Source: Malacoraja senta
Lineage: Eukaryota
DNA length: 64,000 nucleotides
Assembly: GCA_038087875.1 (NCBI GenBank)
Contig: CM075990.1
Coordinates: 124,001 to 188,000, forward strand
Reading direction: 5' to 3'
Shown here: positions 1,960 through 60,429 of the stretch, one piece after another
How positions within the stretch are numbered: the first letter of the stretch is position 1
Layout: each line of letters starts with the position of its first letter
The notes under the pieces: generated by a model
What the model saw: the letters and a program-made list of their open reading frames with translations, nothing else
Database searches by the model: none
Told to the model about the DNA's origin: nothing
Position numbers and translations under genes: made by a program

Positions 1960-3660
1960 AATAGACACAAAATGCTGGAGTTAATCAGCGGGACAGGCAG
2001 CATCTCTGGAGAGATGGAATGGGTCAAGACCATTCTTCAGACAGATGTCAGGGGAGTGGGTGCTACAGAGATAAAATGTAGTCGGAGCAGTAAGACTGGT
2101 CAGAGAACTGGGAAGGGGGAGAGGATGGCGAGAGAGGGAAAGCAAGGGTTACGTGAAGTTAGAGCAGTCAATGTTGATAACGCTGGAGTGTACGCTACCC
2201 AAGTGAAATATGAGGTGCTGTTCCTCCAATTTGCATTGGGCCTCACTCTTACAATGGAGCAGGCCCAGGACAGAAACATCAGTGTGGGAATGGGAGGGGG
2301 AGTTAAAGTCCTCCATATAGCACCCTGGAGGGGTGAAGGAAAACACCGAATGCAAACCTCCACTGCCTTGTGGCTATTCCCTTATTCAGGAAAGGTGAAG
2401 ACTGGATCCGGCGGAATACACGGAGGAGACCACCATTTGGCGGTCCAACCGGTAGGAAGGTGGATGCAGCAAAGTGTCGTGGAGCGCAATTAGGGTACAA
2501 TGTTCATGCAGAACACTGGTGGCTATCCACTGCATCCTGAACTATCGCCAGCCGCCTTGACTATGTCTTGCCACTGGATCCAGATAGGCCGGGACGAGAG
2601 AGTGAGGCTGACGATTTGTGCAACTCTCCCTCACTTTAATCCTAGTCAAGCGCAAGTCATGACTTCAGGACCCGTACTGCCCAACTGGGTGAAGTAAGAT
2701 CACCACAGGAGCGCGTGCAGTTGCGAAGAAGCGCACCGCAGAAGCTCAGAGGAAACGCACCGCGCGCAAGGCTCGAGCTATTTCAACTTCTACTGCAGCA
2801 CCCACCCAACTGTGTCCCATATGCGGGCGAGCCTTCGGGACCCAGATCGGTCTCACCAGTCACCTCCAGACCCACAAACAAAAACACTGAAGTTAAGGTC
2901 TTCTTCGACTACGAAGGACAAACAACAACAAGATAAAGTGTTGAGCAACTGGGAGATCAGGTCGGTTTAGCAGGATTGAGCGGAGATATTCAGCAAAACG
3001 ATCGCCGAGCCTGCGCTTGGTCTCGCCAATATACAGGAGTTCACACCTGGAACAGCGGATACAGTAGATGAGGTTGGAGGAGGTGCGAGTGAACGTCTGC
3101 CTCACCTGAAAAGAATTGGACGGAGTCGAAGGGGGAGGTAAAGGGACAGGTGTTGCATCTCCTGCGGTTGCACAGGAAAGTACCTGGGGAGGGGGTGATT
3201 TGGGTATGAAGGGACGAGATGACCAGGGAGTTGCGGAGGGAACGATCTCTGCGGAAAGCGGAAAGGTGTGGAGATGGGAAAATGTGGCTAGTAGTGGGAG
3301 CCTGTTGGAGGTTGCGAAAATGTTGGAGGATTATGTGCTGTATGCGACGGCTGATGGGGTGGAAGGTGAGGACGGGGGACTCTATCCTTGCTACGAATGG
3401 GGGGAGGGGGAGCAAGAACAGAGGGGTGGGATATCGATGAGAACCCAGTGAGAGCCTCATCTATAATGGAAGAGGGGAACCCCTGTTCCCTAAAGAATGA
3501 GGACATCTCTCATGATCTGGTATGGTTCACCTCATCATGGGCGCAGATGTGACGTAGACGGAGAATTGAGAGTAGGGGATAGAGTCTTTACAGGAAGCAG
3601 AGGGGGAAGAAGTGTAGTCTAGAAAACTATGGGAGTCACTGGGTTTATAATAGATGTCAG
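1960..3660 (-). mobile_element. Penelope-like retroelement, degenerate 3' part (GIY-YIG endonuclease, C-terminus, terminal repeat), interrupted by an RTE-derived insert at 2310-2933
   Basis: Minus-strand frames give FREQGFPSSIIDEAL, CNRRRCNTCP, NLIYCIRCSRCELLYIGETKRRLGDRFAEYLRSI (GIY-YIG) and KLEEQHLIFHLG, with frameshifts. The terminal repeat lies at ~1960-2045. Confidence 0.9.
2310..2933 (+). mobile_element. Bipartite (internally deleted) non-autonomous RTE-clade retroposon
   Basis: TSD taaagt at 2304-2309 and 2934-2939. The 3' part encodes RKRTARKARA...CPICGRAFGTQIGLTSHLQTH (RTE C-terminal C2H2 finger), followed by the tail cgaaggacaaacaacaacaa. The 5' part is non-coding and RTE 5'UTR-like. 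Confidence 0.8.
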
Positions 3661-8689: not shown

Positions 8690-9530
8690 TGAATACAATC
8701 AAACCATCCATGGAGCACAGATAAAGGTACAGTGTTTAGTGCCAGATTGCACATTGAGGTCTGATAACATCTGATTAAAGATAGTTCAAAGGCCTCCGAT
8801 TAGGTAGATTGGAGGTCAGGACCCGCTCCAGCTGATGAGAGGACCGTTCAGTTGCCTAATAACAGCTGGGGAGAAGCAGCTCTTGAATCTGAAGGTATGT
8901 GTTTTCCAACTTCTGTACCTCTTGCCTGATGGGAGAGGGGAGAATAGGGAGTGGCCATGGTGAGACTGGTCCTTGCTTATGCAGGCGGCTTTGCTGAGGC
9001 AGATGAAGTGTAATGGAGTCAGTGGAAGGGAGGTTGGTTTGTGTGATGGTCTGGACCATGTCCACAACTATCTGCAATTTCTTGGGGTCTTAGATGGAGC
9101 TATTCCCAAACCAGGTTGTGATGTATTGCAATTCTATGGTGGATCTGTAGAAGTTGGTGAGGGTTGATGTGGATCTGTAGAAGTTGGTGAGGGTTGATGG
9201 GGAAATGCCAACCAATTTAAGCCTTCTACAGAAGTAGAGGCGTTGGTGTGCTTTCTTGGCCATTGCTTCAATGTGGCTAGTCCAGGACAACTTGCTGGTG
9301 ATATTCATTCCTAGGAACTTGAAACTTTGACTATCTCTACTTCAGCGCCATCAATGCAGACTGGGGTGTGTGTACTGCTTTGTTTCCCGAAGTCAATCAC
9401 AATCTGCTTTGTCTTGCTTGCATTCTGGAAGAGGTTATTGTCTTGGCGTCAAGTTACAAGGTTCGCTATCTCCTTTCTGGACTCTGTTTTGTCATTATTC
9501 GATATCCAGCCCACTATGGTGGTATCGTCT
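8690..9530 (-). mobile_element. Rex1/Babar-like LINE 3' fragment
   Basis: KLSWTSHIEAMAKKAHQRLYFCRRLK...TLTNFYRSTIE and LPSGKRYRS. 30-bp internal tandem duplication at ~9139-9198. Confidence 0.85.
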
Positions 9531-24767: not shown

Positions 24768-25124
24768 TGTCACAGTCTGCCCTCTCCTGCCTGCCTGCCT
24801 GCCACTCCCCTCTCATCAGCCCAACTCTCCTCACCTGTGGCACTCAGTTGCCTCTGATCACCAATTAATCCGGTATATAGACTCTCCTCACCGTTCCCAC
24901 AGTGCCAGATTGTTCTCAGCATTCATGCAAGACTCTCCAGTGATTTCCCGACTGCCTACACAGATTCGAACCTGCCAGCCCCTCTTCGGAACCCTCGCTC
25001 AATCCTGAGCCTCTGTGTGAGTACGGTGTACCCATTCCTGTGTTCCAGTATCGGAATAAAGTTCATTACCAACTATACCTGCCTGATTCTGTGCTGCTAT
25101 CGGGTCCAAGCTATCCCCGTTACA
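24768..25124 (+). repeat. 5' LTR
   Basis: tgtcacag...ttaca; TATA at 24874-24879; AATAAA at ~25055. Confidence 0.95.
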
Positions 25125-25126
25125 GT

Positions 25127-25136
25127 ACAATCTGGC
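25127..25136 (+). promoter_or_regulatory. Self-priming primer-binding site
   Basis: acaatctggc is the exact reverse complement of gccagattgt at 24904-24913, which lies 30 nt after the TATA start. Confidence 0.8.
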
Positions 25137-25141
25137 CAACA

Positions 25142-27151
25142 ATGGACTCGGCGCACACTACGTCTCCGGCAAACTGCTTCGGGAGGATTGAGCACACGCT
25201 CCTGCAGCACGAAGCTATGCTCACTGCCTCCAACTCCGAGATTCGACAGGCTGTGTCAAACCAAGAACAAGCATTGGTTGCACTAGTCACCCAGGTCCAA
25301 CAGCTGAAGACCACCCTCGCCCAGGCTACATCCCTTGCTTCGCCTCCGGCTCCGACAGCACCAGCTCCCGGTCCACCAGGAACATCACCTGAGCCCCGGG
25401 TGGGAACCCCGGAGCGTTACACTGGAGACCCGGAGGGCTGCAACCCATTCATCATGAACTGTTCCATTCTCTTCGCCCTACAGCCCTACACCTTCGCCCA
25501 GGAAGCGGCAAGAGTGGCGTTTACCATTAATCACCTGACTGGCAGAGCTCGGCTGTGGGGAACGGCTGAATGGGAGCGACGCACGCCGGCTTGCTCCTCT
25601 TTCCAGGCCTTCGCCGTGGAGCTTCGCAAGGTGTTCGGTAAGGTTTCGATGGGTCCGGACGCTGCGGGAGGTCTGCTGGGGTTCAGCCAGGGGAACCAGA
25701 GCGTCGCTGACTTCGCCATCGACTTTCGCACCAGGGCCCGTGAGAGTGATTGGAACGCCCCGGCCCAGTGTGACGCTTTCTTGCTGGGCTTGAATGACTA
25801 TATCAAGGATGAGTTGGTGTCCCACGACCTTCCTTCTTCTCTGGATGGGTTTATCGAGCTAACGACCCGTCTGGACCGATGCATCCTGGCGAGACGTCGG
25901 GAGAGGCGACAGGGACCGGCGGACCGCCAGCTTTCCACCCAAGCTCGTTTTCCTCCGGAGACTGGACTACCCTCGTCGGGGCAACCGTCGAGGCAACCCG
26001 AACCCATGCAGGTGGGTCGCACCAGTATCACCCCCGAGGAACGGGAACGTCGAACCTCTGAACTTTCCTCTGCCCGACGCCCTCTTTGTCATGCCCGTCT
26101 GCTATTGTCTGATGGTCCTCACACCCTCGCCACCTTCATAGACTCTGGTTGTGACATTAATCTTATGGACAAGGAACTAGCCCGCCAGCTAGGCATCAGT
26201 TGTGTTCCCCTGCCTGAACCTGTTCCCACCGACGCCCTCGACGGCCATCGACTGGGGACTGTTTCTCACCGGACGGTCCCAGTGCGCATGCTCCTGTCTG
26301 GTAATCACCATGAGACCATCCAGTTCCACATCCTGCAGTCTCCCCGTTTTCCCCTCATCCTGGGTTACCCCTGGCTTCGGCGACACAACCCCAACATCGA
26401 CTGGATGACGGGGGTCGTCTTGGGTTGGAGCCCTTCCTGCCACCAAGTGTGCCTGAAGCAAGCCTCAGCTCCTCAACCGGCCACCTGCTTCAGTGCTGCT
26501 CCGGATCAGACGGGGGTCCTAGCCGAGTACCATGACTTTGGGGAGGTTGTTAGCAAGTCTAGGGCCACCTCCCTTCCTCCTCATCGGCCCTATGACTGCG
26601 CCATAGACCTCCTGCCTGGTTCCGCTCCTCCTAGGGGTCGCCTTGACTCCCTCTCCTACCGACCTGGGTCCTGCAACGTGAAGCCCGATGCCCTTCCTCA
26701 ACAGTCCTTCGCGAAGGAGGAGTCTGCCTCTGGCCCCAAGACCATCCTCTCGTCCTCGCACAGGGTTGCCTCCCTCACCTGGGAGGTGGAGGAGAGGGTC
26801 AAGGCGGCCTTGGAGAACCAGCCGGGACCCAGCACATGCCCTCCTGATCGCCTGTTTGTGGTTTCTGCCCTGCGGTCCGACGTCCTTCAGTGGGCCCACA
26901 GCTCTCGACTCACCTGTCATCCCGGCATTCAGCGGACCAAGGAGATGGTGGGCATCGCTGGAGGAGGACACTCGGGAGTTTGTCAACGCCTGTCCCGTTT
27001 GCAACCAGCACAAGGTCTCACACCAAGCTCCTGCGGGTCATCTGCTTCCACTGCCTGTACCCCATCGACCATGGTCCCACATCTCCCTGGACTTCGTTAC
27101 CGGCCTGCCCCCATCCAGGGGTCACACCACCATCCTGACCGTGGTCAATAG
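25142..27151 (+). CDS. Gypsy Gag-protease fusion running into the integrase N-terminus
   Basis: [14 protein letters not shown] (gag), [12 protein letters not shown] (aspartic protease), [16 protein letters not shown] joined directly to [14 protein letters not shown], and [10 protein letters not shown]. Confidence 0.85.
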
Positions 27152-28268
27152 ATTTAGCAAGATGGCTCACTTCGTGCCCCTGCCCAAGCTTCCGTCAGCC
27201 AAGGAAACTGCCGAGCTCATGTTACTCCACGTCTTCAGGCTCCATGGTCTCCCCGTCGATGTGGTCTCCGACCGAGGACCCCAGTTTGCCTCTGTGTTCT
27301 GGAGGGAGTTCTGCACGCTTGTGGGGGCCACTGTGAGTCTGACGTCCGGATTTCATCCCCAGTCCAACGGCCAAACTGAAAGGAAGAATCAGGAGATGGA
27401 GACGGCGCCGCGGTGTATGGTGTCCAAGCATCCCTCCTCCTGGTCCCAGCAGTTGTTGTGGGTGGAGTACGCACACAACACCCTGACAAGCTCGGCCACT
27501 GGGCTCTCCCCTTTCCAGTGTGCCTACGGGTTCCAGCCTCCACTGTTCCCGGCGCTGGAGAAAGAGGTTTCCTGCCCGTCCGTCCAGGCCTTCATTCGTC
27601 GCTGCCGCAGGACGTGGACCCAAGCCAGGGCGGCTCTTCTCTGCTCCGTCGCCCGTTACGCCACGACTGCCAACCGTCACAGCACCCAGGCCCCCACCTA
27701 CCTCGCGGGCCAGAGGGTGTGGCTGTCGACCCGGGACCTTCCCTTGAGGGTGGAGTCCAAGATGTTGGCACCCAAGTTCATCGGTCCCTTTGAGATCCAG
27801 AAGGTCATCAACCCAGTGGCTGTGCGGCTCAAGTTGCCTCGTTCCATGCGGGTCCATCCTACGTTCCACGTGTCTAGAGTAAAGCCAGTCCGGGAGAGCT
27901 CCCTGGTCCCCGCAGTCCCTCCTCCTCCACCTCCTCGTCTCATCGACGGAGGCCCCGCCTTTACGGTGCACCGCCTCCTGCGCTCCCGCTGTCGTGGGAG
28001 GGGTCTCCATTACCTGGTCGATTGGGAGGGTTACGGTCCAGAGGAGAGGTCCTGGGTTCCTGCTCGACACATCCTGGACGCCTCCCTCATCAGGGAGTTT
28101 CACCGGCGTCATCCCGACCAGCCGTCCAAGTCCGCCACTCCTAGAGGGGTCGCCGCCCCTGAGAATCTGTCCCCTCTTCCGTCTGAGGCGCCCAGTGACG
28201 ACGAGACGGAGCTTTCCTCTGATGCTAGGGAGGAGGATGCGGACATGGATGTCTCGGACGAATATTAG
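26945..28268 (+). CDS. Gypsy integrase core, GPF motif and chromodomain (frameshifted from the upstream ORF)
   Basis: [40 protein letters not shown] and [17 protein letters not shown]. Confidence 0.9.
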
Positions 28269-31470: not shown

Positions 31471-32664
31471 AATTAACCTACAAACCTGTACTTCTTTGGA
31501 GTGTGAGAGGAAACTGAAGATCTCAGAGAAAACCCATGCAGGTCACAGGGAAAATGTACAAACTCCGTACGGACAGCACCCGTAGTCAGGTGTGAACCTG
31601 GGTCTATGGCGCTGTAAGGTAGCAAGTCTATCGCTGCACCACTGTACAGATACTCCTCATTGCAATGGCCACCAAAATTAATTAATATATATATATATAT
31701 ACTAGACTAAGTGGGACCCGTTGGGTCCCAGCATCACACGGGAGGGCTGGTCACCCAACGCAATATTCTACCTCTCCACCAATTCCAATATTGCTGGCCA
31801 GTGGGGGGAAGGGTGCTTTCTGTTGAGCTAGTATGGGCGTTGTGGGCCGAATGATCTGGTTTCCAGGGGGCCAGTATAGACATTGTGGGCCGAATGGATT
31901 CTTGGGCTGGCAGCTCAGTTACTGAGGCCTGGCAGTACAGTCACTCAGACCTGCCAGGCTGGCAGCTGAGAAACTGCCAGAAATTCTGCACAAAACAGGT
32001 GACAGACTGTGTGAGAGAGTAGGGGGAGAGGGTGGACTGAATGGATTATTGGGCTGGCAGTTTAGTGAGTCATGGCTGGTGGGCTGGCAGTTCACTTACT
32101 CACGGCTCGTGGGCTGGCAGGCTGGCAGTTCACTTACTCACGGCTCGTGGGCTGGCAGTGCAGTCACTCACGCCTGGTACGCTGGCAGTTCACTCAGTCA
32201 CACCTCCTCCCTTCATCCCCCCGACTCTGCTCCTTGCCATTCCCCTCCCCCCCCACGCATTCAGTCCATCTCCCCACAACCTCCCCCCATGCACTCTTAG
32301 CGGCTCTCCCACAGAGCAGCCATTCCTGCCTATTAGGTTTCCATTGTGATGAAGAACATGCAGGCATGGAAAGTGGAAAAAGGATTTATAAAAGTTTAAA
32401 TTGTGAATTACTCTTAAAATATAAGAACAAATTAAATGTTAAAGATGAGAATTATTAAGTTCTTTCTTGTTGTGTCTCTTGTTGTGTTCTGCTGCTCACT
32501 GCCTCTTGATGTCTATTTGCTGTTGATAAAAAAAGAGATAATTTTAATATAGATACATGAGCGGTTGTAATTTGTTGTAATTCTCAATCCTCTGGACTCA
32601 CTGAAGAATTTGTGCAAAACATTCTTTTGAGGCGGGGGCTGTCAGGGTGGGATGGGGGCGTGGC

Positions 32665-32802
32665 TTCTTCTTCTTTCGTGTGGCATGCTCAGCCTAAAGT
32701 TGTAGGACAACTTGTTCTATTTGATCTTTTGTTTGTGCACGTCGAGTTGATTGCATTAGTCGGAACAGGGCGGACCACGTGAAGGTTGCAATCTTCCACC
32801 CC
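32665..32802 (-). mobile_element. 138-bp non-autonomous retroposon (Ingi/Vingi-like) with a ribozyme head and (GAA)n tail
   Basis: 3' end GCCACACGAAAGAAGAAGAA. 9-bp TSD gggcgtggc/gggggtggc at 32656-32664 and 32803-32811. Confidence 0.75.
32749..32802 (-). ncRNA. HDV-like self-cleaving ribozyme (minimal, 54 nt)
   Basis: GGGGUGG(P1)-AA-GAUUGCA(P2)-ACC(P3)-UUCACGU(L3)-GGU(P3')-CCGCCCU(P1')-G(P1.1)-UUCCGA-CUAA(J4/2)-UGCAAUC(P2'). Confidence 0.85.
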
Positions 32803-33282
32803 GGGGGTGGCAAACTTCCTGCAGCCGAGGGAGGGGGAAGGCTTCAGGCGGGGGCTCTCGTGGGCTGATGAGGGAGGGGTGTCCTGCAGCGGGGGATGGG
32901 GGCAGCTTCAGGAGGGGGAGCATCCTATAGCTAGGCGGAGGGCAGCGTCTGGAGGTGGGGATGCCAGTGGTGTGGGGGGGGTGGGGGCGCAGTGAGTGAC
33001 CCACTCATGGCCTCTGGACTCACTCACTGCCTTGGGACTAACTCATGGTCTCTGGACTGATTGACTCACTCATGGCCTCTGGACTGACAGACTGAATCAC
33101 GGCTTGTGGACTGACTGACTTTTGCCCGACTACTGGAGTCACGTCCGACTTTTGTAAACTGAAAACTGTAACATCCACATTGAGGAACAGCCTCTTCCTG
33201 ACAGCCATCAGGCTATTAAACATAACAAATAAGCTCTGAACTATGAAATACTATATTATTTGTACCATTTGTTATTTTTTGA

Positions 33283-33359
33283 TCACACACACACCCTCCA
33301 CCTCACAGACACTCACACACACACACGCAGACTCTCACACTCGCATACACATACTCTCA

Positions 33360-33400
<41 letters not shown>

Positions 33401-33485
33401 TCTCACACACACACACACAGACACTCTCTCACTCACACACACACACACTCACGCACAGACAGACTCACTCACACAGACTCACACA
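33283..33485. repeat. Imperfect (CA)n microsatellite
   Basis: Visible dinucleotide tract. Confidence 0.95.
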
Positions 33486-33730
33486 TAGACCCTCAACCAA
33501 TAATAATATGCCAAGTAACTTCAGAACGTGGTAAACATTCAGTGTGTAAACCGAATGATTCAAATGTTTAAAGCCTCCTGTAGAGACGGCTGCTGGTGAA
33601 GCAAAAACGTGCTTTAAATAAGGTCCAACAAAAACACTCACCATAGACAGAGCAGTAAGCTCTCTTGAATTATTCAACGACGTCTTCACTATGCCTTCTG
33701 CAGTCAGCGCCATCTTGCCACGAACCAGAA

Positions 33731-36110
33731 TTTAAAAAAAAAAAAATTATTTTATTTTATTAGAAGTAAGTACAGAAATATGGCACCAAGGTACCTAATA
33801 TATATTGGAGAAACTCAGCGGGTGCAGCAGCATCTATGGAGCGAAGGAAATAGGTAACGTTTCGGGTCGAAACCCTTCTTCAGACACTTCTTGAGTCTGA
33901 AGAAGGGTTTCGGCCCGAAACGTTACCTATTTCCTTCGCTCCATAGATGCTGCTGCACCCGCTGAGTTTCTCCAGCATTTTTGTGTACCTTCGATTTTCC
34001 AGCATCTGCAGTTCCTTCTTTAACAGCTAATATATATTGACATCTTACATTTTATGTACACCTTTTTTTTTAAATAATGAAAAAGAAAAAGAGAGAATAG
34101 ATAATAAAAGATAGAAAAACGTATGATATATAGTGTGTGAAAAGGAGAAAAGGGTGAAAGAAAAAAACTGAAGAAAAGAAGATAGAGAGAGAAAGAGTAG
34201 AAAGTAAGAGATTAAGATCATTATCTATATTCTTGACCATCCCTCACCCAATCCTGAAAGTTAGCTACTACGATTCTGTTGCACCATATGCTTCCAAAAA
34301 ATCAACAAATGGAGACGAACTCATTAAGAATTGGTCTGATTTATCTGTTAGGAGGAATCGCATTTCCTCAAGATGTGCAGTGTCCAACATATTTGAAACC
34401 CACATTTTAAGCGTTGGTATGGGTGTATTTTTCCAAAATTTAAGTATGTTTTTTTGCCGTTATTAACCCATAATTAAAAAATAAATTTTGAGAAGAGTTC
34501 AATTTATTCCCATCTTCCATTACTGCAAATATAATCATTTCAGTATTTGGTTCCATTTTTATCTTGAATTATTTTGTAAATATTTAAAAAATATCACTCC
34601 AGAATTTATAACGTTTTATGCAGGAAACAAAAGAGTGTGTTATAGTTGCATTTTGAGATAGACATTTATCACAAATGGGGGAGGTATTTGGATAGAATTT
34701 ATTCAATCTAGTTTTTGAATAATATAATCTATGTAAAATTTTAAATTGAATTAAATTATGTCCTACATTAATCAAACATTTGTGTATATATATCAAATAC
34801 TTTTCCCATGTTTCCTTCGTGATTTTTTATCATTAATTCTCATTCCCACTCTTCTCTAAGTGCCTCTGTCGATGGTAGGTCTATATTTAAAATACTATTA
34901 TATAAATATGATATTAATTTCTGTGCGTCAGCCTTAATAGTCATTGCTTCCAGTGGATCTAAAGTTATATTTTGATATCTTTGTATGTATTTCTTCATGA
35001 AGTCGCAGATCTGAAGATATTTAAAATATTGGTTATTTTTCAGTTTAAATTTTAATTGTAACTGTTGGAATGATAACAGATTTCCCATTTCATACATATC
35101 ACCGATCCTTTTAATTCCCATTTTTTTCCCATTGATTATATGTTTTATCAATAAGAGACGGTTTAAATGAAGGATTATTCACTATTCGCATTAACAATGA
35201 TAGGTTTCTTAATTTTAAAGATAATTTTATTTGTTTCCAAATTCTTATTGTATCATGTATAATTGGGTTATTCTTATATATTGTGTTGTTCAGTTTTATC
35301 GGGGAGAAGAGGATCGCTCCTATGTTACAAGGAGAACAATCCTCTTTCTCCATTCTTATCCATTCTGTCTGTTGGGTAGAACTGTCCAACCAGTAAATTA
35401 TATTCTTAATATGCACTGCCCAATAATAATACAACAAGTTCGGAAGTGAAAGTCCCCCAACTTGTTTTGGTTTGCACAAGTGTTTTCTTTGAATTCTGTG
35501 TGATCTATAGTCCCAAATAAAATTGGTAATATTAGAGTCTAGTTTTTTTTTAAAGTTTTTTGGTATATATAATGGTATAGATTGAAATAGGTATAATATT
35601 TGTGGTAAAAAGATCATTTTTATAGCGTTTAGTCTGCCTATTAATGATAACGGAAGTGTTTTCCAGAATTTAATCAACGCATTGAGTTTATTTAATAAAG
35701 GCATAAAATTAGCATTAAATAATGCTTTGTATTTTCTAGTAATTTGAATACCCAAATACTTAAATTTTTCTGTTGCAATTTTCAAGGGGAATTTTAATAG
35801 GTGTAGATTCTTGAAGTTTTAACGTCTTGATTTCACTTTTATTCCAATTTATTCTATATCCAGAAAAAGAACCGAATTCCTCTATTAAATTTAATAAGTT
35901 TGGTATGTTCATTTGTGAATTTGTAATGTATAAAAGTATATCGTCTGCATATAATGAAATTGTATTATTTGAGTCCCTAGTATTATATCCCTGAATATTC
36001 GGATGAATTCTTATACTTTCAGCCAGGGGCTCTATCATAAGGGCAAATAGCAGAGGTGATAAAGCACATCCCTGCCTATTGCCTCTCGATAATTGAAATT
36101 TTGGAGATAA
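33731..36110 (-). mobile_element. L1-clade LINE, 5'-truncated and frameshifted
   Basis: RGNRQGCALSPLLF, ISLYADDILLY and KFKYLGI. TSD cacgaacc(a/g)gaa at 33719-33730 and 36111-36122. Confidence 0.95.
33808..34026. mobile_element. Fold-back Penelope terminal-repeat insertion in the L1 3'UTR
   Basis: ~79-bp inverted arms at 33807-33885 and 33895-33973. 13-bp TSD ctaatatatattg at 33795-33807 and 34027-34039. Confidence 0.9.
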
Positions 36111-49164: not shown

Positions 49165-50133
49165 TTACTGAAAGGCAGCGGCAAACAGAAAAGTCTTCAG
49201 TCTAGATTTAAAAGAGCTGAGAGTTGCAGCAGACCTGCAGTTTTCTGGGAGTTTGTTCCAGATATGTGGTGCATAAAAACTAAATGCTGCCTCTCCATAT
49301 TTAGTTCTGACTCTGGGGACACAGAGCAGACCTGTCCCAGACGATCTGAGAGGTCTGGGTGGTTCGTAGCTAAGCAGAAGATCAGAAATGTATTTTGGCC
49401 CTAAACCATTCAGTGCTTTGTAAACCAACAGTAGTATTTTGAAATCAATTCTTTGACAGACAGGAAGCCAGTGTAAAGACCTCAGAACTGGAGTAATGTG
49501 ATCTACTTTTTTGGTCTTAGTGAGGACTCGAGCAGCAGCGTTCTGAATTAACTGCAGCTGTCTGATCGACTTTTTAGGGAGACCTGTAAAGACACTGTTA
49601 CAGTAGTCGAGCCTGCTGAAGATAAATGCATGGACAAGTTTTTCCAAATCCTGCTGAGACATAAGTCCTTTAATCCTTGATATATTCTTTAGGTGATAGT
49701 AGGCTGACTTTGTGACTGTTTTTATGTGGCTGTTGAAGTTCAGGTCTGAGTCCATGACTACTCCTAAGTTTCTGGCTTGGTTTGTTGTTTTTAGCATTAC
49801 CATTGGAAGCTGGGTGCTAACTTTTAATCGTTCTTCCTTGGCTCCAAAAACAATTATTTCAGTATTTTCTTTGTTTAATTGGAGAAAATTCTGGTTCATC
49901 CAATCGTTGATTTGCTCAATGCATCTACTCAGTGCTTGTATTGGACTATAGTCTCCTGGTGATATTGTTATGTAGATTTGTGTGTCGTCTGTGTAACTAT
50001 GGTAACATATTTTGATATTTTTCATGATCTGAGCCAGTGGAAGCATGTAGATGTTAAACAGAAGAGGCCCCAGAATGGAGCCCTGGGGAACTCCACATGT
50101 AATTTTTGCATGCTCAGATGTGTAATTACACAA
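49165..50133 (-). CDS. L2 reverse transcriptase, C-terminal part
   Basis: 322-aa open frame; the YADD motif reads YTDD. Confidence 0.85.
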
Positions 50134-50320
50134 AGTAGTCCCTGTCCTTCAAGTAGGATTCAAACCATTTTAATGCTGTGCCAGAAAGTCCCACCCAGTT
50201 TTCCAAACGGTCTAGTAATATGTTGTGATCGACTGTGTCGAATGCAGCACTGAGATCTAGTAATACTAAGACTGAAATGTTGTCATTGTCTGTGTTTACA
50301 TCTGCGCCAGGTGCGTCGAG

Positions 50321-51157
50321 ATGGGGCTCCTAAGGGACCGTGTTAGGAACCTGGAGCAGCAACTCGATGACCGCTGTCTGCTCAGGGAGAGCGAGGAGGT
50401 CATAGAAAGGAGTTACAGGGAGGTGGTCACTCCAAGACCACGGGAGACAGAAAACTGGGTCACAGTTAGGAAGGGCAATGGGCAGAGGCAGGGACTGGTG
50501 AGTACCCCAGTGGCTGTACACCTTGAAAATAAGTACTCATGTTTGAGTAATGGTGGGGGAGACGGCCTACCTGGGGGCAGCGACAGCGGCCGGGCCTCTG
50601 GCACAAAGACCGGTCCTGTTGCTCAGAAGGGTAAGGAAAAGAAGAGGAGGGCAATTGTAATAGGGGACTCTATAGTCAGGGGGTCGGATAGGCATTTCTG
50701 TGGACGCGGACAAGAGACCCGGATGGTAGTTTGCCTCCCTGGTGCCAGGGTCAGGGATGTGTCTGAACGTGTCCAAGAAATCCTGAAATGGGAGGGAGAG
50801 GAGCATGAGGTTGTGGTACATATAGGTACCAACGACATAGGTAAAAAAAGAGAAGAGGTCCTGAAAGAAGAATTTAGGGAGTTAGGTAGAGAGTTAAGGA
50901 GAAGGACTGCAAAGGTAACAATCTCAGGATTACTGCCTATGCCACGCGACAGTGAGAGTAGGAATGGAGCGAGGTGGAGGATAAATGAGTGGATGAGGGA
51001 CTGGTGCAGTGGGTATGGATTCAAGTTTCTGGATCATTGGGACCTCTTTTGGGGAAGGTGCGACCTGTACAGAAAGGATGGGTTGCACTTGAACTCGAGG
51101 GGGACCAAAATCCTGGCGGGGAGATTTGCAAAGGCTACTGGGGAGACTTTAAACTAG
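50321..51157 (+). CDS. CR1 ORF1 (coiled coil plus SGNH/GDSL esterase), 5'-truncated
   Basis: [22 protein letters not shown] and DGLHLN. Confidence 0.9.
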
Positions 51158-51531
51158 TATGGTTGGGGGGAGGGACTCAAATTGGGAAAGCTAGCAGTCA
51201 GTGTGTGAGGCAGGAGGCAGAGAATGGTAGCACTCTGGCCCAAAATGTAGGGGAGAGAGAAGAAAAAGACAATAAACAGAGAATAAGAGAGGGTGGGTTT
51301 CTTAAATGTGTATATTTTAATGCTAGGAGCATTGTAAGAAAGGTGGATGAACTTAAAGCCTGGATTGACACCTGGAAGTATGATGTTGTGGCGATCAGTG
51401 AAACATGGTTGCAGGGCTGTGATTGGAAACTAAATATTCCAGGATTCGTTGCTTCAGGTGTGATAGAATTGGAGGGGCAAGAGGTGGAGGTGTTGCATTG
51501 CTTATCAGGGAAGATATTACAGCAGTGCTTT

Positions 51532-52910
51532 ACATAGATACATAGATACATAGAAAATAGGTGCAGGAGTAGGCCATTCGGCCCTTCGAGCCTGCACCGC
51601 CATTCAATATGATCATGGCTGATCATCCAACTCAGTATCCCGTACCTGCCTTCTCTCCATACCCCCTGATCCCTTTAGCCACAAGGGTCACATCTAACTC
51701 CCTCTTAAATATAGCCAATGAACTGGCCTCAACTACCCTCTGTGGCAGAGAGTTCCAGAGATTCACCACTCTCTGTGTGAAAAAGTTTTTCCTCATCTCG
51801 GTCTTAAAGGATTTCCCCCTTATCCTTAAGCTGTGACCCCTTGTCCTGGACTTCCACAACATCGGGAACAATCTTCCTGCATCTAGCCTGTCCAACCCCA
51901 TAAGAATTTTGTACGTTTCTATAAGATCCCCTCTCAATCTCCTAAATTCTAGCGAGTATAAGCTAAGTCTATCCAGTCTTTCTTCATATGAAAGTCCTGA
52001 CATCCCAGGAATCAGTCTGGTGAACCTTCTCTGCACTCCCTCTATGGCTATAATGTCCTTCCTCAGATTTGGAGACCAAAACTGTACGCAATACTCCAGG
52101 TGTGGTCTCACCAAGACCCTGTACAACTGCAGTAGAACCTCCCTGCTCCTATACTCAAATCCTCTTGCTATGAAGGCCAACATACCATTCGCTTTCTTCA
52201 CTGCCTGCTGCACCTGCATGCCTACTTTCAATGACTGGTGTACCAAGACACCCAGGTCTCGCTGCATCTCCCCATTTCCTAATCGGCCACCATTTAGATA
52301 ATAGTCTGCCTTCCCGTTTTTGCCACCAAAGTGGATAACCTCACATTTATCCACATTATACTGCATCTGCCAAACATTTGACCACTCACCCAGCCTATCC
52401 AAGTCACCTTGCAGTCTCCTAGCATCCTCCTCACAGCTAACACTGCCCCCCAGCTTAGTGTCATCCGCAAACTTGGAGATGTTGCTTTCAATTCCCTCGT
52501 CCAGATCATTAATATAAATTGTAAATAGCTGGGGTCCCAGTACTGAGCCTTGCGGTACCCCACTAGTCACTGCCTGCCATTGTGAAAAGGACCCGTTTAC
52601 TCCTACTCTTTGCTTCCTGTTTGCCAGCCAGTTCTCTCTCCACATCAATACTGAACCCCCAATACTGTGTGATTTAAGTTTGTATCCTAATCTCTTATGT
52701 GGTACCTTGTCGAAAGCCTTCTGAAAGTCCAGATACAACACATCCACTGGTTCTCCCCTATCCACTCTACTAGTTACTTCCTTGAAAAATTCTATAAGAT
52801 TCGTCAGACACGATTTACCTTTCGTAAATCCATGCTGACTTTGTCCAATGATTTCACCACTTTCCAAATGTGCTGCTATCCCATCTTTAATAACTGACTC
52901 TAGCAGTTAT
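51532..52910 (-). mobile_element. CR1 LINE 3' part (411-aa open RT frame at 51632-52867)
   Basis: QHGFTKGKSCLTNL, GVPQGSVLGP and FADD; (tatgtatc)n tail. Confidence 0.95.
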
Positions 52911-53358
52911 TGGCAGGATAGATTAGAGGGCTCGTCTAGGGAGGCTATTTGGGTGGAACTGAGAAATGGAAAAGGGGTAGCAACATTCATAGGGGTGTAT
53001 TGTAGACTGCCAAATGGGGAGCGAGAATTGGAAGAGCAAATATGTAAGGAGATAGCAGATATTAGTAGTAAGCACAAGGTAGTGATTGTGGGAGATTTCA
53101 ATTTTCCACACATAGACTGGGAAACACATTCTGTAAATGGGCTGGATGGGTTGGAGTTTGTAAAATGTGTGCAGGATAGTTTTTTGCAGCAATACATAGA
53201 AGTACCTACTAGAGAAGGGGCGGTGCTGGACCTCCTGTTAGGAAATGAGACGGGTCAGGTGGCAGAGGTATGCGTTGGGGAACAGTTCGGGACCAGTGAT
53301 CACAATACCATTAGTTTCAATATAATTATGGAGCGGGTCAGAACTGGACCTAGGGTTG

Positions 53359-53361
<3 letters not shown>

Positions 53362-53398
<37 letters not shown>

Positions 53399-56300
53399 AT
53401 TTATTAGAAGTACATTACATCACAGCCACATACATTAATACTCGTCATTTATATCTTCTTACAATTAATGTACTCCCTTTATTTTTTTTTTTTACACTAA
53501 AGAAAGAAAAGATTGAAAGAGAGAAGAAAGTGAAGGAAAAAGTGCAAGTGTAGAAAAGTGTAGAAAATGTAACAACAAAAAAAAAGGACGAGGACCCTAT
53601 GAGAGCGAAATTAAAAACAAAAAGAAAAAGAGTTAAGAAATAGGCCCTAAGAAAAGAAAAGAGAGAGAGAAAAAAAGAAAAACAAATGTTTTTTTTTTTT
53701 TGAGCATCACGTAAATAGGACATACCAACTCTTCAACTATCATCCCCCCTTACCCGACCTCAATTTTTTATTTTTTTAAAGTACTTTTGCACCCTATGTT
53801 TGTAATAATTCTATAAATGCAGACCACGTCAGGTGGAAGTGATCTGGTTTACCTGCTAGGAGGAGTCTTATCTCTTCAAGGTGTAGTGTTTCAAACATAT
53901 TTGAAATCCACATATTTATAGTTGGTATTGGAGCCTTCTTCCAAAATTTTAGAATTAGCTTTTTTCCAGTTATTAACCCATAATCCATTAATTTCTTTTG
54001 AAACACATTTAGTTCTGGATCATCTTCCGTTATTCCGAAGATAATCCATTCTGCTTTGGGTATCAGTCTTGTTTTAAATAACTTTGTAAAGATTTCAAAA
54101 ATTTCATTCCAAAATTTTTGAATTTTTGTACAGAAGACAAATGAGTGCGCTATAGTTGCTTCTTGGGATTGACATTTATCACAAATAGATGATACGTTTG
54201 GGAAAATTTTATGAATTTTAGTTTTCGAATAATATAATCTATGTAAAATTTTAAATTGTATTAAAGTGTGTCTTACATTAATCGAGCATTTATGTACTTT
54301 TAATAAGTATTCATTCCAACTTTCCTTTGAAATTTTAATAGCTAACTCTTGTTCCCAGTCTCTTCTGATACCCTCCGTAGATGGTATTTGTACATTTAAG
54401 ATAATATTGTACAAATATGATATTAAGTTTGCTGATTCCGCTTTTGTCTGCATTGCCTCGTCCAGTACATCTGCTGGGTTATTATGATGATCTTTTATAT
54501 ATTTTTTCAAATAGTCGCATATTTGAAAGTATTTAAAATATTGATTATTTCCGAGTTTATATTTTATTTGTAATTGTTGAAATGAAAGTAATTTTCCAGT
54601 TTCATACAAGTCACCAAGCGTTTTAATTCCTAGTCTATCCCATTGTGTATAAGCTTTATCTATAATAGGACTAAACGAAGGGTTATTGACTATAGGTAAT
54701 AAAAGTGATAAGTTTCTTAATTTTAAATTTTGTTTTATTTGTTTCCAAATACGGATTGTACTATGAATAATTGGGTTCTTATTATAGTTTATGTTATTCA
54801 ATTTCATTGGAGAGAGGAGGATCGCTCCAATGTTTCTAGAGGAGCAATCCTCTTTCTCCATTACAATCCAGTCTACTTGCTGGGCGGAGTTATCCATCAG
54901 TTGAATCATGTTTTTAATATTTACTGACCAATAATAATACATAAAATTGGGTAGTGCTAGACCCCCCAATACTTTAGATTTATTCAGATGGGTTTTTTGT
55001 ATTCTATGTGATTTATAGTCCCATATAAAATTAGTGATATCTGAGTCGAGTTTTTTAAAAAACTTCTTAGGTAAGTATATAGGAATTGATTGAAATAGGT
55101 ATAAAATTTGTGGTAAAAAGATCATTTTTATTGCGTTTATTCGGCCTATTAAAGACATCGGAAGCGTTTTCCAGAATTTAATTAATGTATTCAGTTTATT
55201 AAGTAGGGGGTCAAAATTTGCCCTGAGCATACCTTGATATGCTCTGGTAATTTCGATTCCCAAATATTTAAATTTTTCTGTAGCTATTTTAAAAGGGAAT
55301 TTTAAAAGATGTGTTGAATCTTTCGGTTTTATTGACATAATTTCACTTTTATTCCAATTTATTCTATATCCAGAAAAAGATCCGAAGTCTTCAATTAAAT
55401 TTAATATATTTGGTATAGTGATTTGAGGTTTTGTAATATACAATAATATATCATCCGCGTATAAAGATATTTTATTATATGAGTCTTTAGTATTATATCC
55501 ATGAATATCAGGGTGTATTCTAATTTTTTCTGCTAGCGGTTCAATAATGAGAGCAAACAGCTGTGGTGATAATGAGCATCCTTGTCTATTTCCCCTTGAT
55601 AGTTGAAATTTCGAGGATAATATGTTATTAGTAAGTATTCTAGCTGTAGGTTTGTTATATAGTAACTTAATCCATAAAATAAAATTCTCTCCCAGTTGAA
55701 ATTTTTGTAATACTTTATCCATATAATTCCATTCTACTTGATCAAATGCTTTTTCAGCATCCAGCGAAATAATTGATAATTCTTGATCTTCAGATTTGTG
55801 TGAGTGCATTATGTTGAGTAGACGTCTCATATTATTAGAAGAGTATCTCTTAGGGATAAACCCTGTCTGATCTGGGTTTATTAATTTACTAATGTATTTA
55901 CTTAATCTTCTGGCTAATGTTTTCGCTAATATTTTTTGATCTGTGTTTAACAATGCTATAGCTCTATATGAGCCAGGTTCTTCTAAATCCTTATTTTTCT
56001 TAGGTATTAATGTAATCGTTGATTCCGCTAATGTATCAGGTAGTATTCGTTTTTTAAAAGCGTATTGGTACATTTTTTGTAATCTTGGTATTATTTTATC
56101 ATAAGTTTTTATAAAATTCATTAGTAAATCCATCAGGGCCTGGTGTTTTTCCATTTTTTAGTGAGTTTATTGTATCTTCTAATTCCTTAATTGAGATTTG
56201 TGCACCCAGTTCCTCTTGTTCCTTCAGCTCTAACTTTGGAAGATTACAGGTATCCAAGAACTTTGTGATATTATTGGAATCAATTATCGTTTTAGATGTA

Positions 56301-57650
56301 TACAAATTCTCGTAAAATTGCGCAAATCTTTTATTAATATCCTTCGGTGTTGTTAATAATTCCCCTTTATCTGATTTGATCTTTGGTATAGTATGTTCCT
56401 TTTCTCGTTTTTTTAGCTGGCGAGCCAAAAGTTTATGCGGTTTATCCCCAAATTCAAAGTGCTCTTGTTTTGTAATTTGAAAAAGTCTTATAAGTTTGGC
56501 AGATAATAATTTATTTAATTTAAATTTTAAAATTATTATTTTATTATGTTTATCTATTGTTGGATCTTTAGCATTATCTATATCCATTTGTCTAATAAGT
56601 TCTTCTAACTGTCTTTGTTCATTCTTATTCTTTTTATTTTGAAAAGCTTGATATGAAATTATAATACCCCTAATGTATGCTTTAAAAGATTCCCAAAGTA
56701 AAGTAGGCGATATATCTGAAGTATCATTTGTTTGAAAAAAGACCTCCATTTGTTCTTTTAAATATATACTCGCTTGTGGATCTTTTAAAATTTGAGAGTT
56801 AAATCTCCAGAATGAATTATTCTTAGACAATCCTTCCAGTTTTAAAAAGAAAGTTAGTGGAGAATGGTCTGAAATTGAATTTGTATGATATATTGCATTA
56901 GATGTTTGGGGGATTAATTTTGTATCCAGCAGAAAGTAGTCTATACGTGAGTATGTCTTATGTACCATTGAGTAAAACGAATATTCCCTGCCAGTTGGAT
57001 TCACAATTCTCCAAACATCTGCTATATTAGTGTTGTTTATGTAGGTATTGAGGAGTTCCCCAGTTTTCGATTTCATATTCCCTCTCTGTTTTTGACTTGA
57101 TTTATCTAAGTACGGGTCTAAAACACAATTAAAGTCTCCGCCTATTATAACATTTTGATAGTTTGACTCTGCAATTATATTGAAGATTTTATTGAAAAAG
57201 TGGGGGTTATCAAAGTTAGGGGCATATATATTTACCAAAGTAAGTGGAGTGTCATGGATTTCTCCATTAACTATTAGGTATCTCCCTTCTATATCTGTTA
57301 TAATATTCTTTGCTTTAAATGGTATACCTTTTCTTATGATAATTGACGTGCCTCTAGATTTTGAAGTGAATGAAGAGTGGTATGTTTGACCTATCCATTT
57401 CGCCCTCAGCCTAACTTGGTCCTGAGGTTTTAGGTGTGTTTCTTGTAGGAAGGTAATGTCAGAATTATACATTTTTAGCTGAGCTAATATCTTACCCCTT
57501 TTGATAGGTTCATTAATACCTCTTATATTCCAACTACAAAATGAGACTCCTCCTAGGTTCTTTTGTGTGGTGTCATGCATTTTGAATAATTATAGTACCT
57601 TTGAATCTTGTGGTGCGTCCATATCCCAGGTCTTTAGGTATTGGGGGAGT
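53362..57650 (-). mobile_element. L1-clade LINE with complete ORF2 (one frameshift), ORF1 lost
   Basis: Poly(A) at 53362-53390; EN and RT ORFs as listed below. Confidence 0.96.
53794..57580 (-). pseudogene. L1 ORF2 (APE endonuclease, RT, Cys domain) with a single frameshift near 56100
   Basis: SWNIRG, FLQETH, GGDFN and SDH (EN); KTPGPDGF, LDAEKAFD, RQGCSLSP and YADD (RT). Confidence 0.92.
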
Positions 57651-57657
57651 TTTTGAT

Positions 57658-60429
57658 AGAAAGGTGGATGAACTTAAAGCCTGGATTGACACCTGGAAGT
57701 ATGATGTTGTGGCGATCAGTGAAACATGGTTGCAGGAGGGCTGTGATTGGAAACTAAATATTCCAGGATTTCGTTGCTTCAGGTGTGATAGAATTGAAGG
57801 GGCAAGAGGTGGAGGTGTTGCATTGCTTATCAGGGAAGATATTACAGCAATGCTTTGGCAGGATAGATTAGAGGGCTCTTCTAGGGAGGCTATTTGGGTG
57901 GAACTGAGAAATGGGAAAGGGGTAGCAACACTCATAGGGGTGTATTATAGACCGCCAAATGGGGAGCGAGAATTGGAAGAGCAAATATGTAAGGAGATTG
58001 CAGATATTAGTAGTAAGCACAAGGTAGTGATTGTGGGAGATTTCAATTTTCCACACATAGACTGGGAAACCCATTCTGTAAATGGGCTGGATGGGTTGGA
58101 GTTTGTAAAATGTGTGCAGGATAGTTTTTTGCAGCAATACATAGAAGTACCTACTAGAGAAGGGGCGGTGCTGGGCCTCCTGTTAGGAAATGAGACGGGT
58201 CAGGTGGCAGAGGTATGCGTTGGGGAACAGTTCGGGACCAGTGATCACAATACCATTAGTTTCAATTTAATTATGGAGAGGGTCAGAACTGGACCTAGGG
58301 TTGAGATTTTTGATTGGAGAAAGGCTAACTTTGAGGAGATGCGAAAGGATTTAAAAGGAGTAAATTGGGACAGTTTGTTTTATGGGAAAGATGTGGAAGA
58401 GAAATGGAGGACATTTAAAGGTGAAATTTTAAGAGTACAGAATCTTTATGTCCCTGTTCGGTTGAAAGGAAATAGTAAGAATTGGAAAGAGCCATGGTTT
58501 TCAAGGGAAATTGGACACTTAATTCAGAAAAAGAGAGAGATCTACAATAATTATAGGCAGCATGGAGTAAATGAGGTGCTGGAGGAGTATAAAAAATGTA
58601 AAAAGTGTCTGAAGAAAGAAATTAGAAAAGCTAAAAGAAGATATGAGGATGCTTTGGCAAGTAAGGTGAGACTAAATCCAAAGGGTTTCTATAGCTATAT
58701 TAATAGCAAAAGGATAACGAGGGATACAATTGGTCCATTAGAGAGTCAGAATGGACAGGTATCTGCTGAGCCAAAAGAGATGGGGGAGATATTGAACAAT
58801 TTCTTTTCTTCGGTATTCACCAAGGAGAAGGATATTGAATTATGTGAGGTAAGGGAAACAAGTAGAGTAGCTATGGAAACTATGAGATTCAAAGAAGAGG
58901 AAGTACTGACACTTTTGAGAAATATAAAAGTGGATAAGTCTCCAGGTCCGGACAGGATATTCCCTAGGACATTGAGGGAAGTTATTGTAGAAATAGCTGG
59001 GGATATGACAGAAATATTTCAAATGTCATTAGAAACGGCAATAGTGCCGGAGGATTGGCATACTGTGCATGTTGTTCCATTGTTTAAAAAGGGATCTAAG
59101 AGTAAACCTAGCAATTATAGACCTGTTAGTTTGGCGTCAGTGGTGGGCAAATTAATGCAAAGGATACTTAGAGATTATATATATAAGCATCTGGATAAAC
59201 AGGGTCTGATTAGGAACAGTCAACATGGATTTGTGCCTGGAAGGTCATGTTTGACTAATCTTCTTGAATTTTTTGAAGAGGTTACTCGGGAAATTGATGA
59301 GGGTAAAGCCGTGGATGTTGTATATATGGACTTCAGTAAGGCCTTTGACAAGGTTCCTCACGGAAGGTTGGTTAAGAAGGTTCAATGGTTGGGTATTAAT
59401 GGTGGAGTAGCAAGATGGATTCAACAGTGGCTGAATGGGAGATGCCAGAGAGTAATGGTGGATGGTTGTTTGTCAGGTTGGAGGCCAGTGACTAGTGGGG
59501 TGCCACAGGGATCTGTGTTGGGTCCACTGTTGTTTGTCATGTACATCAATGATCTGGATGATTGTGTGGTAAATTGGATTAGTAAGTATGCAGATGATAC
59601 TAAGATAGGTGGGGCTGTGGATAATGAAGTAGATTTTCAAAGTCTACAGAGAGATTTATGCCGGTTGGAAGAGTGGGCTGAAAGATGGCAGATGGAGTTT
59701 AATGCTGATAAGTGTGAGGTGCTACATCTTGGCAGGACAAATCAAAATAGGACGTACATGGTAAATGGTAGGGAATTGAAGAATGCAGGTGAACAGTGGG
59801 ATCTTGGAATAACTGTGCACAGTTCCCTGAAAGTGGAATCTCATGTAGATAGGGTGGTAAAGAAAGCTTTTGGTGTGCTGGCTTTTATAAATCAGAGCAT
59901 TGAGTATAGAGGTTGGGATGTAATGTTAAAATTGTACACGTCATTGGTGAGGCCAATTCTGGAGTATGGTGTACAATTTTGGTCGCCTAATTATAGGAAG
60001 GATGTCAACAAAATAGAGAGAGTACAGAGGAGATTTACTAGAATGTTGCCTGGGTTTCAGCAACTATGTTACAGAGAAAGGTTGAACAAGTTAGGGCTTT
60101 ATTCTTTGGAGCGCAGAAGGTTAAGGGGGGACTTGATAGAGGTCTTTAAAATGATGAGAGGGATAGACAGAGTTGACGTGGATAAGCTTTTCCCACTGAG
60201 AGTAGGGAAGATTCAAACAAGGGGACATGACTTGAGAATTAAGGGACAGAAGTTTAGGGGTAACATGAGGGGGAACTTCTTTACTCAGAGAGTGGTGGCT
60301 GTGTGGAATGAGCTTCCAGTGAAGGTGGTGGAGGCAGGTTCGTTTTTATCATTTAAAAATAAATTGGATAGTTATATGGACGGGAAAGGAATGGAGGGTT
60401 ATGGTCTGAGCGCAGGTATATGGGACTAG
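57658..60429 (+). CDS. CR1 ORF2 (APE endonuclease plus RT), uninterrupted, lacking only the first ~12 residues
   Basis: ISETW, YRPP, GDFN, SDH, KSPGPD and YADD with no stops. Confidence 0.92.
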   Translation, partial: RKVDELKAWIDTWKYDVVAISETWLQEGCDWKLNIPGFRCFRCDRIEGARGGGVALLIREDITAMLWQDRLEGSSREAIWVELRNGKGVATLIGVYYRPPNGERELEEQICKEIADISSKHKVVIVGDFNFPHIDWETHSVNGLDGLEFVKCVQDSFLQQYIEVPTREGAVLGLLLGNETGQVAEVCVGEQFGTSDHNTISFNLIMERVRTGPRVEIFDWRKANFEEMRKDLKGVNWDSLFYGKDVEEKWRTFKGEILRVQNLYVPVRLKGNSKNWKEPWFSREIGHLIQKKREIYNNYRQHGVNEVLEEYKKCKKCLKKEIRKAKRRYEDALASKVRLNPKGFYSYINSKRITRDTIGPLESQNGQVSAEPKEMGEILNNFFSSVFTKEKDIELCEVRETSRVAMETMRFKEEEVLTLLRNIKVDKSPGPDRIFPRTLREVIVEIAGDMTEIFQMSLETAIVPEDWHTVHVVPLFKKGSKSKPSNYRPVSLASVVGKLMQRILRDYIYKHLDKQGLIRNSQHGFVPGRSCLTNLLEFFEEVTREIDEGKAVDVVYMDFSKAFDKVPHGRLVKKVQWLGINGGVARWIQQWLNGRCQRVMVDGCLSGWRPVTSGVPQGSVLGPLLFVMYINDLDDCVVNWISKYADDTKIGGAVDNEVDFQSLQRDLCRLEEWAERWQMEFNADKCEVLHLGRTNQNRTYMVNGRELKNAGEQWDLGITVHSSLKVESHVDRVVKKAFGVLAFINQSIEYRGWDVMLKLYTSLVRPILEYGVQFWSPNYRKDVNKIERVQRRFTRMLPGFQQLCYRERLNKLGLYSLERRRLRGDLIEVFKMMRGIDRVDVDKLFPLRVGKIQTRGHDLRIKGQKFRGNMRGNFFTQRVVAVWNELPVKVVEAGSFLSFKNKLDSYMDGKGMEGYGLSAGIWD

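Follow-up and report, generated by a model that had tools for sequence, protein, structure and literature searches.

A 138-nt retroposon headed by an HDV-like ribozyme fold as a probable deletion derivative of a Vingi-like LINE

The 138-nt element on the minus strand of positions 32665-32802 of the window (the whole 64,000-nt stretch of DNA analysed) is, we suggest with a probability of about 0.8, a deletion derivative of a Vingi-like LINE that likely spreads by self-excision at its first nucleotide, G1, and by means of a reverse transcriptase borrowed from the LINE. Judged by its alignments, it is a short internally deleted element (SIDE), non-coding and composed of the first 79 nt of the LINE, a 13-nt filler and the last 46 nt of the LINE.

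Results

Structure and boundaries of the short element

The features of the locus are listed here, with nt numbers counted along the element from G1.

32665..32802, minus strand: whole short element, 138 nt, young subfamily; all 40 scored best matches are 96-100% identical over 136-138 nt, and the edges are given by TSDs and loose contig ends
32749..32802, minus strand: P4-less HDV-like predicted ribozyme (nt 1-54), predicted cut 5' of G 32802, predicted catalytic C 32759; found by the strict descriptor, with the same fold at the 5' ends of five sister LINE families
32724..32748, minus strand: LINE 5'UTR segment (nt 55-79), including nt 62-69, the 5' arm of a possible helix between the two ends; placed by alignment to the 5' end of LINE copy L243
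32711..32723, minus strand: 13-nt filler at the deletion junction (nt 80-92), partly duplicating the preceding LINE bases; matches neither LINE end in the alignments and is missing from subfamily L134, a clean deletion
32665..32710, minus strand: LINE 3' end (nt 93-138) with the last four codons, stop TAG at 32696-32694 where the LINE frame stops, 3'UTR and (GAA)n tail; nt 93-136 agree with the 3' end of LINE copy L245 at 38 of 44 positions
32803..32811, minus strand: left TSD; by pairing with G2-G7 it can form a competing Alt-P1 hairpin (6 bp, -10.1 kcal/mol)
32656..32664, minus strand: right TSD, one mismatch; perfect in the paralogous copy L019 and present as a single copy in 15 empty host sites
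31701..33730, minus strand: host repeat carrying the short element as cargo, with a Helitron-like 3' end (hairpin, then CTAG) near 31701 and its 5' part cut off by another insertion; 682 first-look candidates

At the 5' end, nt 2-79 of the element and the LINE copy L243 are identical in 72 of 78 alignment columns. In contigs of four public sequencing runs, from four coded organisms, loose ends mark the edges of the element (32802 and 32664-32669); these contigs contain the short-element family and show the sharp edge at 32802. The sequence-only reading had described a ribozyme fused directly to a LINE-type tail, which is contradicted by the 25 nt of LINE 5'UTR and the 13-nt filler that intervene, and an end in (GAA)n, which is borne out by the LINE-derived last 46 nt. 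Its placement of the cleavage site at a 5' boundary set by a 9-bp TSD stands as regards the boundary; a perfect 9-bp match does not, the two sides agreeing at 8 of 9 positions in the window copy. This TSD is nevertheless genuine: the 9-mer occurs a single time in each of 15 host-repeat copies that lack the insertion, and its two sides agree at all positions in L019.

The host repeat is at least 2 kb long, and among 30 loci, 28 of which could be parsed, 13 were filled (nine flagged by a script and four with mutated heads identified by eye) and 15 were empty with a single 9-mer. We take the hairpin-plus-CTAG end near 31701 to be Helitron-like, and in the simplest reading the window copy reflects one insertion into this Helitron-like repeat that was then copied along with it. 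In a model without pseudoknots, the Alt-P1 hairpin formed by the upstream 9-mer together with P2 and P3 reaches -17.4 kcal/mol versus -12.5 kcal/mol for P1 and P3. An upstream Alt-P1 is reported to slow the human CPEB3 ribozyme about 250-fold (PMC8233481), so cleavage of the window copy, whose flank can form such a hairpin, may be inefficient.

No host exon was found among 102 unmasked window ORFs, the sole match being a single C2H2 zinc finger at 2693-2887 (plus strand) just under the Pfam cut-off, possibly an exon or a transposase fragment. The window also contains an LTR-retrotransposon remnant with gag, integrase, SH3 and chromo domains (24944-28268, plus strand), an L1-type element (53794-57589, minus strand), a CR1-type element with a 947-aa open frame (57586-60429, plus strand), L2/CR1 fragments (49165-53438), a GDSL-esterase frame (50276-51157) and a long palindromic repeat with many copies in the window, which scored below the cut-offs of miRNA models (33812-33968).

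Fold of the 5' end

The minus strand from 32802 to 32749 can be folded into a full HDV-type nested double pseudoknot. P1 (nt 1-7/30-36) has 7 bp including the two G.U pairs G1.U36 and U5.G32, P2 is formed by nt 10-16/48-54, and P3 (nt 17-19/27-29) has 3 bp and is closed by the L3 sequence UUCACGU; P1.1 is a single C-G pair via G37, P4 is replaced by a 5-nt linker, and the predicted catalytic C, first in J4/2, is C44 at window position 32759. The strict descriptor, composed with prior knowledge of the HDV L3 motif, requires G1, a fully paired 7-bp P1, at least 6 pairs in P2, a Watson-Crick P3, the HDV L3 motif, a G after P1 and C-N-R-A before P2; scanned over the two strands of the window it matches at one site, 32802-32749, and 2,683 dinucleotide shuffles of the window gave no match. 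Every helix of the complete pseudoknot lies where the sequence-only reading had placed it, and the coordinates confirm its position for the putative catalytic C. In Rfam, HDV-F-prausnitzii matches the same 54 nt weakly (15.9 bits, E=9.4), which does not reach the HDV-family cut-off of 44 bits for RF02682, a model of 74 positions where the fold here has 54 nt and lacks P4; the window element has no match to RF00622 (CPEB3) at E<=10.

Copy number, insertion structure and subfamilies

The short element is present in at least 5,400 copies in a genome of 1.94 Gb that also contains CR1, L1 and L2 elements. Exact 20-mers from the head and the tail occur 5,381 and 5,384 times, respectively, with no occurrence of the reversed controls, and 52 of the 98 head sites listed are also among the tail sites listed, giving a rough total near 9,000. 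The full 138-nt query has 1,993 first-look candidates, the 40 that were scored being 96-100% identical in a set chosen for likeness. These counts include passive copies, because short copies are carried in tandem repeats of about 3.1 kb (L162-L164 on contig C20) and in local duplications (L138-L142 on contig C1).

To sample copies without regard to their 5' end, we used the first 90 of 100 tail sites listed on contig C1, a few of which are duplicated loci. They comprise 82 copies with a head, five truncated copies and three LINE fragments. Almost all head-bearing copies (80 of 82) extend to nt 1-2; a TSD of 9-15 bp, with a mode of 11-12 bp, was called in 75 of them and ends within one base of G1 in 60 of these 75. 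A high-copy, non-autonomous retroposon with a simple-repeat tail, flanked by TSDs at many loci and starting at G1, is thus what the sequence-only reading anticipated and what the genome contains.

The strict fold is retained in 23 and lost in 59 of the 82 head-bearing copies, much of the decay falling at CpG sites, and C44, U20 and G25 are kept in 76, 80 and 75 copies, respectively. C40 is a private change of the window copy, with T in 81 of the 82. The family is divided into several subfamilies that differ chiefly in the middle, which their founders altered by deletions and duplications while the fold was kept. Frequent subfamily changes within nt 1-54 affect position 8 (unpaired), position 32 (U-A to U.G) and position 45 (CUAA/CGAA), and all three fit the fold. 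Within the family, P1 has only one-sided changes (U5-A32 or U5.G32), with no two-sided compensation.

Some short elements are nested: heads lie in reverse orientation inside LINE copies at L212, L233/L260, L219/L220 and L221, and one short copy is inverted inside an older short copy, with L007 being listed among these nested-insertion loci. A recurring variant that had been taken as a candidate LINE partner proved to be another short subfamily.

The autonomous partner

The partner is a LINE of ~3.1 kb that encodes APE, RT and a CCHC finger and shares both ends with the short element. At the tail-bearing loci L102 and L151, the upstream coding sequence has a CCHC-type finger at its end and terminates at the TAG within the tail of the short element. 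Walking upstream from the tail loci gave 514 candidates at the 3' end, 24 in the middle and four loci with the 5' end. The autonomous partner that the sequence-only reading had expected among Ingi/Vingi-type LINEs was found as L243:566-3366, a full-length but decayed copy that starts at the ribozyme, ends in (GAA)n, is flanked by a 10-bp TSD and has one internal deletion of about 280 bp; its assignment to the clade is by architecture. Part of this 5' end is also present in three further LINE copies, and the LINE itself has the P4-less form of the ribozyme.

Every translated partner copy is broken by stops or frameshifts, the longest open stretch being 442 aa. Pfam identified APE and RT domains and no RNase H in the natural open stretches and in P0001, the best public relative of the partner protein (1,019 aa, 71% identical); metagenome contigs gave one distant match (28%). 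In an RT tree without a named Vingi, Ingi or RTE reference, the partner falls in one clade apart from CR1 and L1 (100/98). We call it Vingi-like, as a likeness only, for its domain architecture of a single ORF of about 1,000 aa with APE and RT, no RNase H and a length of about 3 kb; Vingi is described as a single-ORF APE element lacking RNase H (PMC13708176). The partner family (L259, L257, L244) groups with P0001 (71%) and apart from the other Vingi-like families of the genome.

Partner copies are of similar age to the youngest short subfamily (94% pairwise, up to 97%, versus 95%). The idea that this subfamily had switched its partner to LINE family E, whose tail letters its own tail resembles, was dropped in view of this similar age. 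Three pattern searches for the partner gave only deleted or interrupted short copies, and L099 and L100, considered as an ORF start, both run into other repeats. At L243:567-672, the partner frame has no stop from nt 2 onward across the ribozyme, and an ATG upstream of the likely start lies in frame within J4/2-P2; an open run of such length is expected by chance.

Conservation of the fold among LINE families

A protein search identified further families of the partner's clade at 34-49% identity. When a relaxed descriptor was applied to 17 LINE 5'-end loci, eight were parsed, covering five further families, and nine decayed copies were not; for family D, no 5' end was located. Across the six LINE families the letters of P1, P2 and P3 differ and the pairs are kept, as are U-Y-C-N-C-G-U in L3, the G after P1 and C-N-R-A in J4/2, with P4 ranging from absent to more than 40 nt. 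Copies of family E start at G1 against a TSD. That letters change while pairing is kept points to selection on RNA structure rather than on a DNA motif, and on sequence comparison this is the strongest evidence for a selected fold, bench tests aside. Conservation of P1 and P2 pairing, on which the sequence-only reading had staked its interpretation, was accordingly found, by compensatory change, at the level of the LINE families.

A second short family, M (24 loci seen: L444, L446, L450-L464, L466-L468, L470-L473), is about 170 nt long, ribozyme-headed, flanked by TSDs and tailed by (GAA)n. Its fold differs from that of the 138-nt element but is also P4-less and shares the 5-nt linker, and its tail resembles that of LINE family F. 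Family M gives weaker support because most of its copies have a U in place of the expected G1.

A possible helix between the two ends

In most short copies nt 62-69 are complementary to nt 112-119, a complementarity that is damaged in the window copy. With the short-element family as the discovery set, and with a statistic chosen post hoc, namely the longest perfect helix that the 30 nt following the ribozyme can form with the element's own 3'UTR, the helix held in three of four held-out families, E with 9 bp (p about 0.0005), F with 7 bp (0.01-0.02) and H with 8 bp (0.01-0.05), but not in B with 3 bp (p=1). When the two regions came from different families (non-cognate pairs), the range was 3-6 bp, and the longest helices in partner LINE copies were 8, 5, 4 and 3 bp. 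A duplex-energy test was mostly negative (p=0.003 for family E, a marginal 0.04 for one family-A copy and 0.07-0.42 for the other four), the true sequence segment ranking 7-29 of 60-70. On these comparisons we put the odds that the short 5'UTR-3'UTR helix is real at about even; a literature search by title or abstract start found no paper on pairing of this sort.

CPEB3-like repeats

Family E (L302, L303, L304, L307, L308, L328, L329) is young and Vingi-like, with 98% pairwise identity. Its 5' ribozyme resembles that of CPEB3, and two of its copies have frames open over 1,008 and 1,014 aa; L302 and L303 have tandem partial ribozyme repeats at the 5' end. The family E 5' ribozyme scores 41-64 bits on RF00622 (cut-off 35) in seven of nine family-E-type loci, the other two being without a 5' end, and loci of families B, F and H had no RF00622 match in the same comparison. 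Across the genome, RF00622 gave 51 matches among 59 scored, 39 of them at or over the cut-off, and no match in 14 control genomes.

Five scattered, old interspersed copies (L435, L437, L439, L445 and L448, each at about 1501-1600) fit the CPEB3 model in P1, P2, P3 and the P4 stem, with 54 of 67 model positions matched in L435 and 52 of 61 in L439 (counted by eye from alignments) and one shared compensatory change in P2. Because the P4 letters are unrelated among the other families, the match in P4 argues for descent over convergence. Similarity alone does not prove descent, however, since R2 and HDV are reported to share 21 of 27 core positions (PMC8256844). Also against descent, copies of the L435 type share sequence for only about 30 nt beyond the ribozyme, and a tail, TSD or ORF was not found for them. 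Two more families fit the CPEB3 model (L438, L441, L447, L449; and L428, L432, L436, L465); L465 continues into an APE-like N-terminus, and its family is probably another LINE 5' end.

Discussion

Combining the copy structure with the fold and the partner data, we suggest the following route of spread: (i) a copy would be transcribed by read-through or from an internal promoter, (ii) the ribozyme would fold and cleave 5' of G1, leaving a defined end that is perhaps protected by the compact fold, (iii) the LINE protein would bind the 3' end, possibly aided by the short 5'UTR-3'UTR helix, and (iv) target-primed reverse transcription would insert a full-length copy with an 11-12-bp TSD. For the window copy the final step was another one, namely duplication together with its Helitron-like host repeat.

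A start precisely at nt 1 is also compatible with an internal promoter. L1Tc has both an internal Pol II promoter and a ribozyme, and L1Tc and NARTc are reported to hold both functions in the same 77 nt (PMC4035085; PMC8256844); that thousands of copies arose from several subfamilies, and that no host gene was found around the window copy, would likewise suit such a promoter. We regard an internal Pol II promoter as the explanation of this start as unlikely, though it deserves serious attention, because the cross-family pattern points to RNA structure and not to a DNA motif; moreover, the promoter and ribozyme functions are not mutually exclusive. Alternatively, the ribozyme may have been inherited and be inactive or irrelevant in the short element, with copies being full length merely because 138 nt are easily reverse-transcribed. 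The loss of the strict fold in most sampled copies, the absence of P4, the one-pair P1.1 and the inactivity in vitro of some well-folded SIDER ribozymes (PMC4035085) agree with this possibility; however, short length fails to explain why ends stop at G1 without carrying upstream flank, subfamily founders changed the middle yet kept the fold, and the P4-less form is found in the LINE itself, so that we consider it improbable.

A conventional Pol III SINE with a chance fold resembles the element in size, TSDs and LINE-type tail, but ARAGORN found no tRNA and Rfam found no tRNA, 5S or 7SL match at E<=10, in line with the sequence-only reading, which had supposed that no Pol III promoter was needed. 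The head, rather than deriving from a tRNA, 5S, 7SL or snRNA, is the LINE's own 5' end over its first 79 nt, and the fold had no chance match in the shuffles. We give this explanation a negligible probability; it is refuted by the alignment to the LINE unless Pol III transcription were shown. We favor the model in which the element is a deletion derivative of the Vingi-like LINE and excises itself at G1.

The kind of element is already known. Bipartite non-autonomous LINE derivatives are a described category (PMC5786205, PMC3414825, PMC4035085), Vingi is one of four clades reported to form them (PMC5786205), R2 SIDEs provide a precedent tested in vitro (PMC3414825), and the NARTco and L1Tco ribozymes have been tested in vitro as well (PMC4035085). 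Like R2 SIDE and R2/R1 SIDE of Drosophila and NARTc and RIME of trypanosomes, the short element combines a 5' HDV-like ribozyme with the 3' end of a partner LINE, lacks an ORF and is flanked by TSDs (PMC3414825, PMC4035085). Elements of the R2 SIDE/NARTc type are described as mobilised in trans (PMC3414825, PMC4035085), and for the short element we infer mobilisation by the partner protein from the shared tail and the same TSD size. Unlike these four, it resides in a vertebrate-type genome in thousands of dispersed copies, is 138 nt long and P4-less, and has a partner without RNase H. With internal-deletion derivatives of Vingi-1_EE and with Vingi-derived SINE bodies it shares the bipartite structure and a single-ORF APE partner described as lacking RNase H (PMC5786205, PMC13708176).

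P4-less HDV-like ribozymes are reported to be active (bioRxiv 2023.06.13.544163). As in the minimal HDV-like ribozymes drz-Mtgn and theta, P4 is absent here and the catalytic C is first in J4/2 (bioRxiv 2023.06.13.544163); those, however, come from gut metagenomes and phages, where they lie beside tRNAs, whereas the predicted ribozyme here caps an animal retroposon. The mammalian CPEB3 ribozyme (RF00622) has the same L3 and the same one-pair P1.1 context, G then U after P1, but unlike the short element it has a P4 stem and exists as one conserved copy in an intron. The literature searched contained no example of the variant described here, which is Vingi-like, P4-less and present by the thousand in a vertebrate-type genome. 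That search gave no report of the short-element family or of a Vingi ribozyme; Repbase, Dfam, Kojima 2011 and Ruminski 2011 lay outside its scope, and the family may already be deposited.

If the model is correct, a SINE-like family would have arisen in a vertebrate-type genome without depending on a promoter. Scaling the 23 intact folds among the 90 sampled tail sites to the 5,384 tail sites gives a rough estimate of 1,400 or more intact predicted self-cleaving sites, a number at which strand bias in introns and premature cutting of transcripts become testable.

A wider scenario, to which we assign somewhat less than even odds, is that the Vingi-like LINEs of this genome are all capped by ribozymes, have ends closed by a helix and shed mini-elements by the thousands, and that one old member is a direct relative of the CPEB3 ribozyme, which would then be a domesticated retroelement 5' end. 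No derivation of the CPEB3 ribozyme from a transposable element was found in the literature searched, Webb 2009 and Ruminski 2011 lying outside its scope. The repeats that resemble CPEB3 may point to the origin of this ribozyme. An outgroup for it is said to have been called missing in Bendixsen 2021; these repeats could supply that outgroup, so that the origin of the best-known human ribozyme could be tested directly. The finding would, in addition, add Vingi-like LINEs to the elements with 5' ribozymes and suggests possible roles for their ends; gene writing now employs this clade with both UTRs kept.
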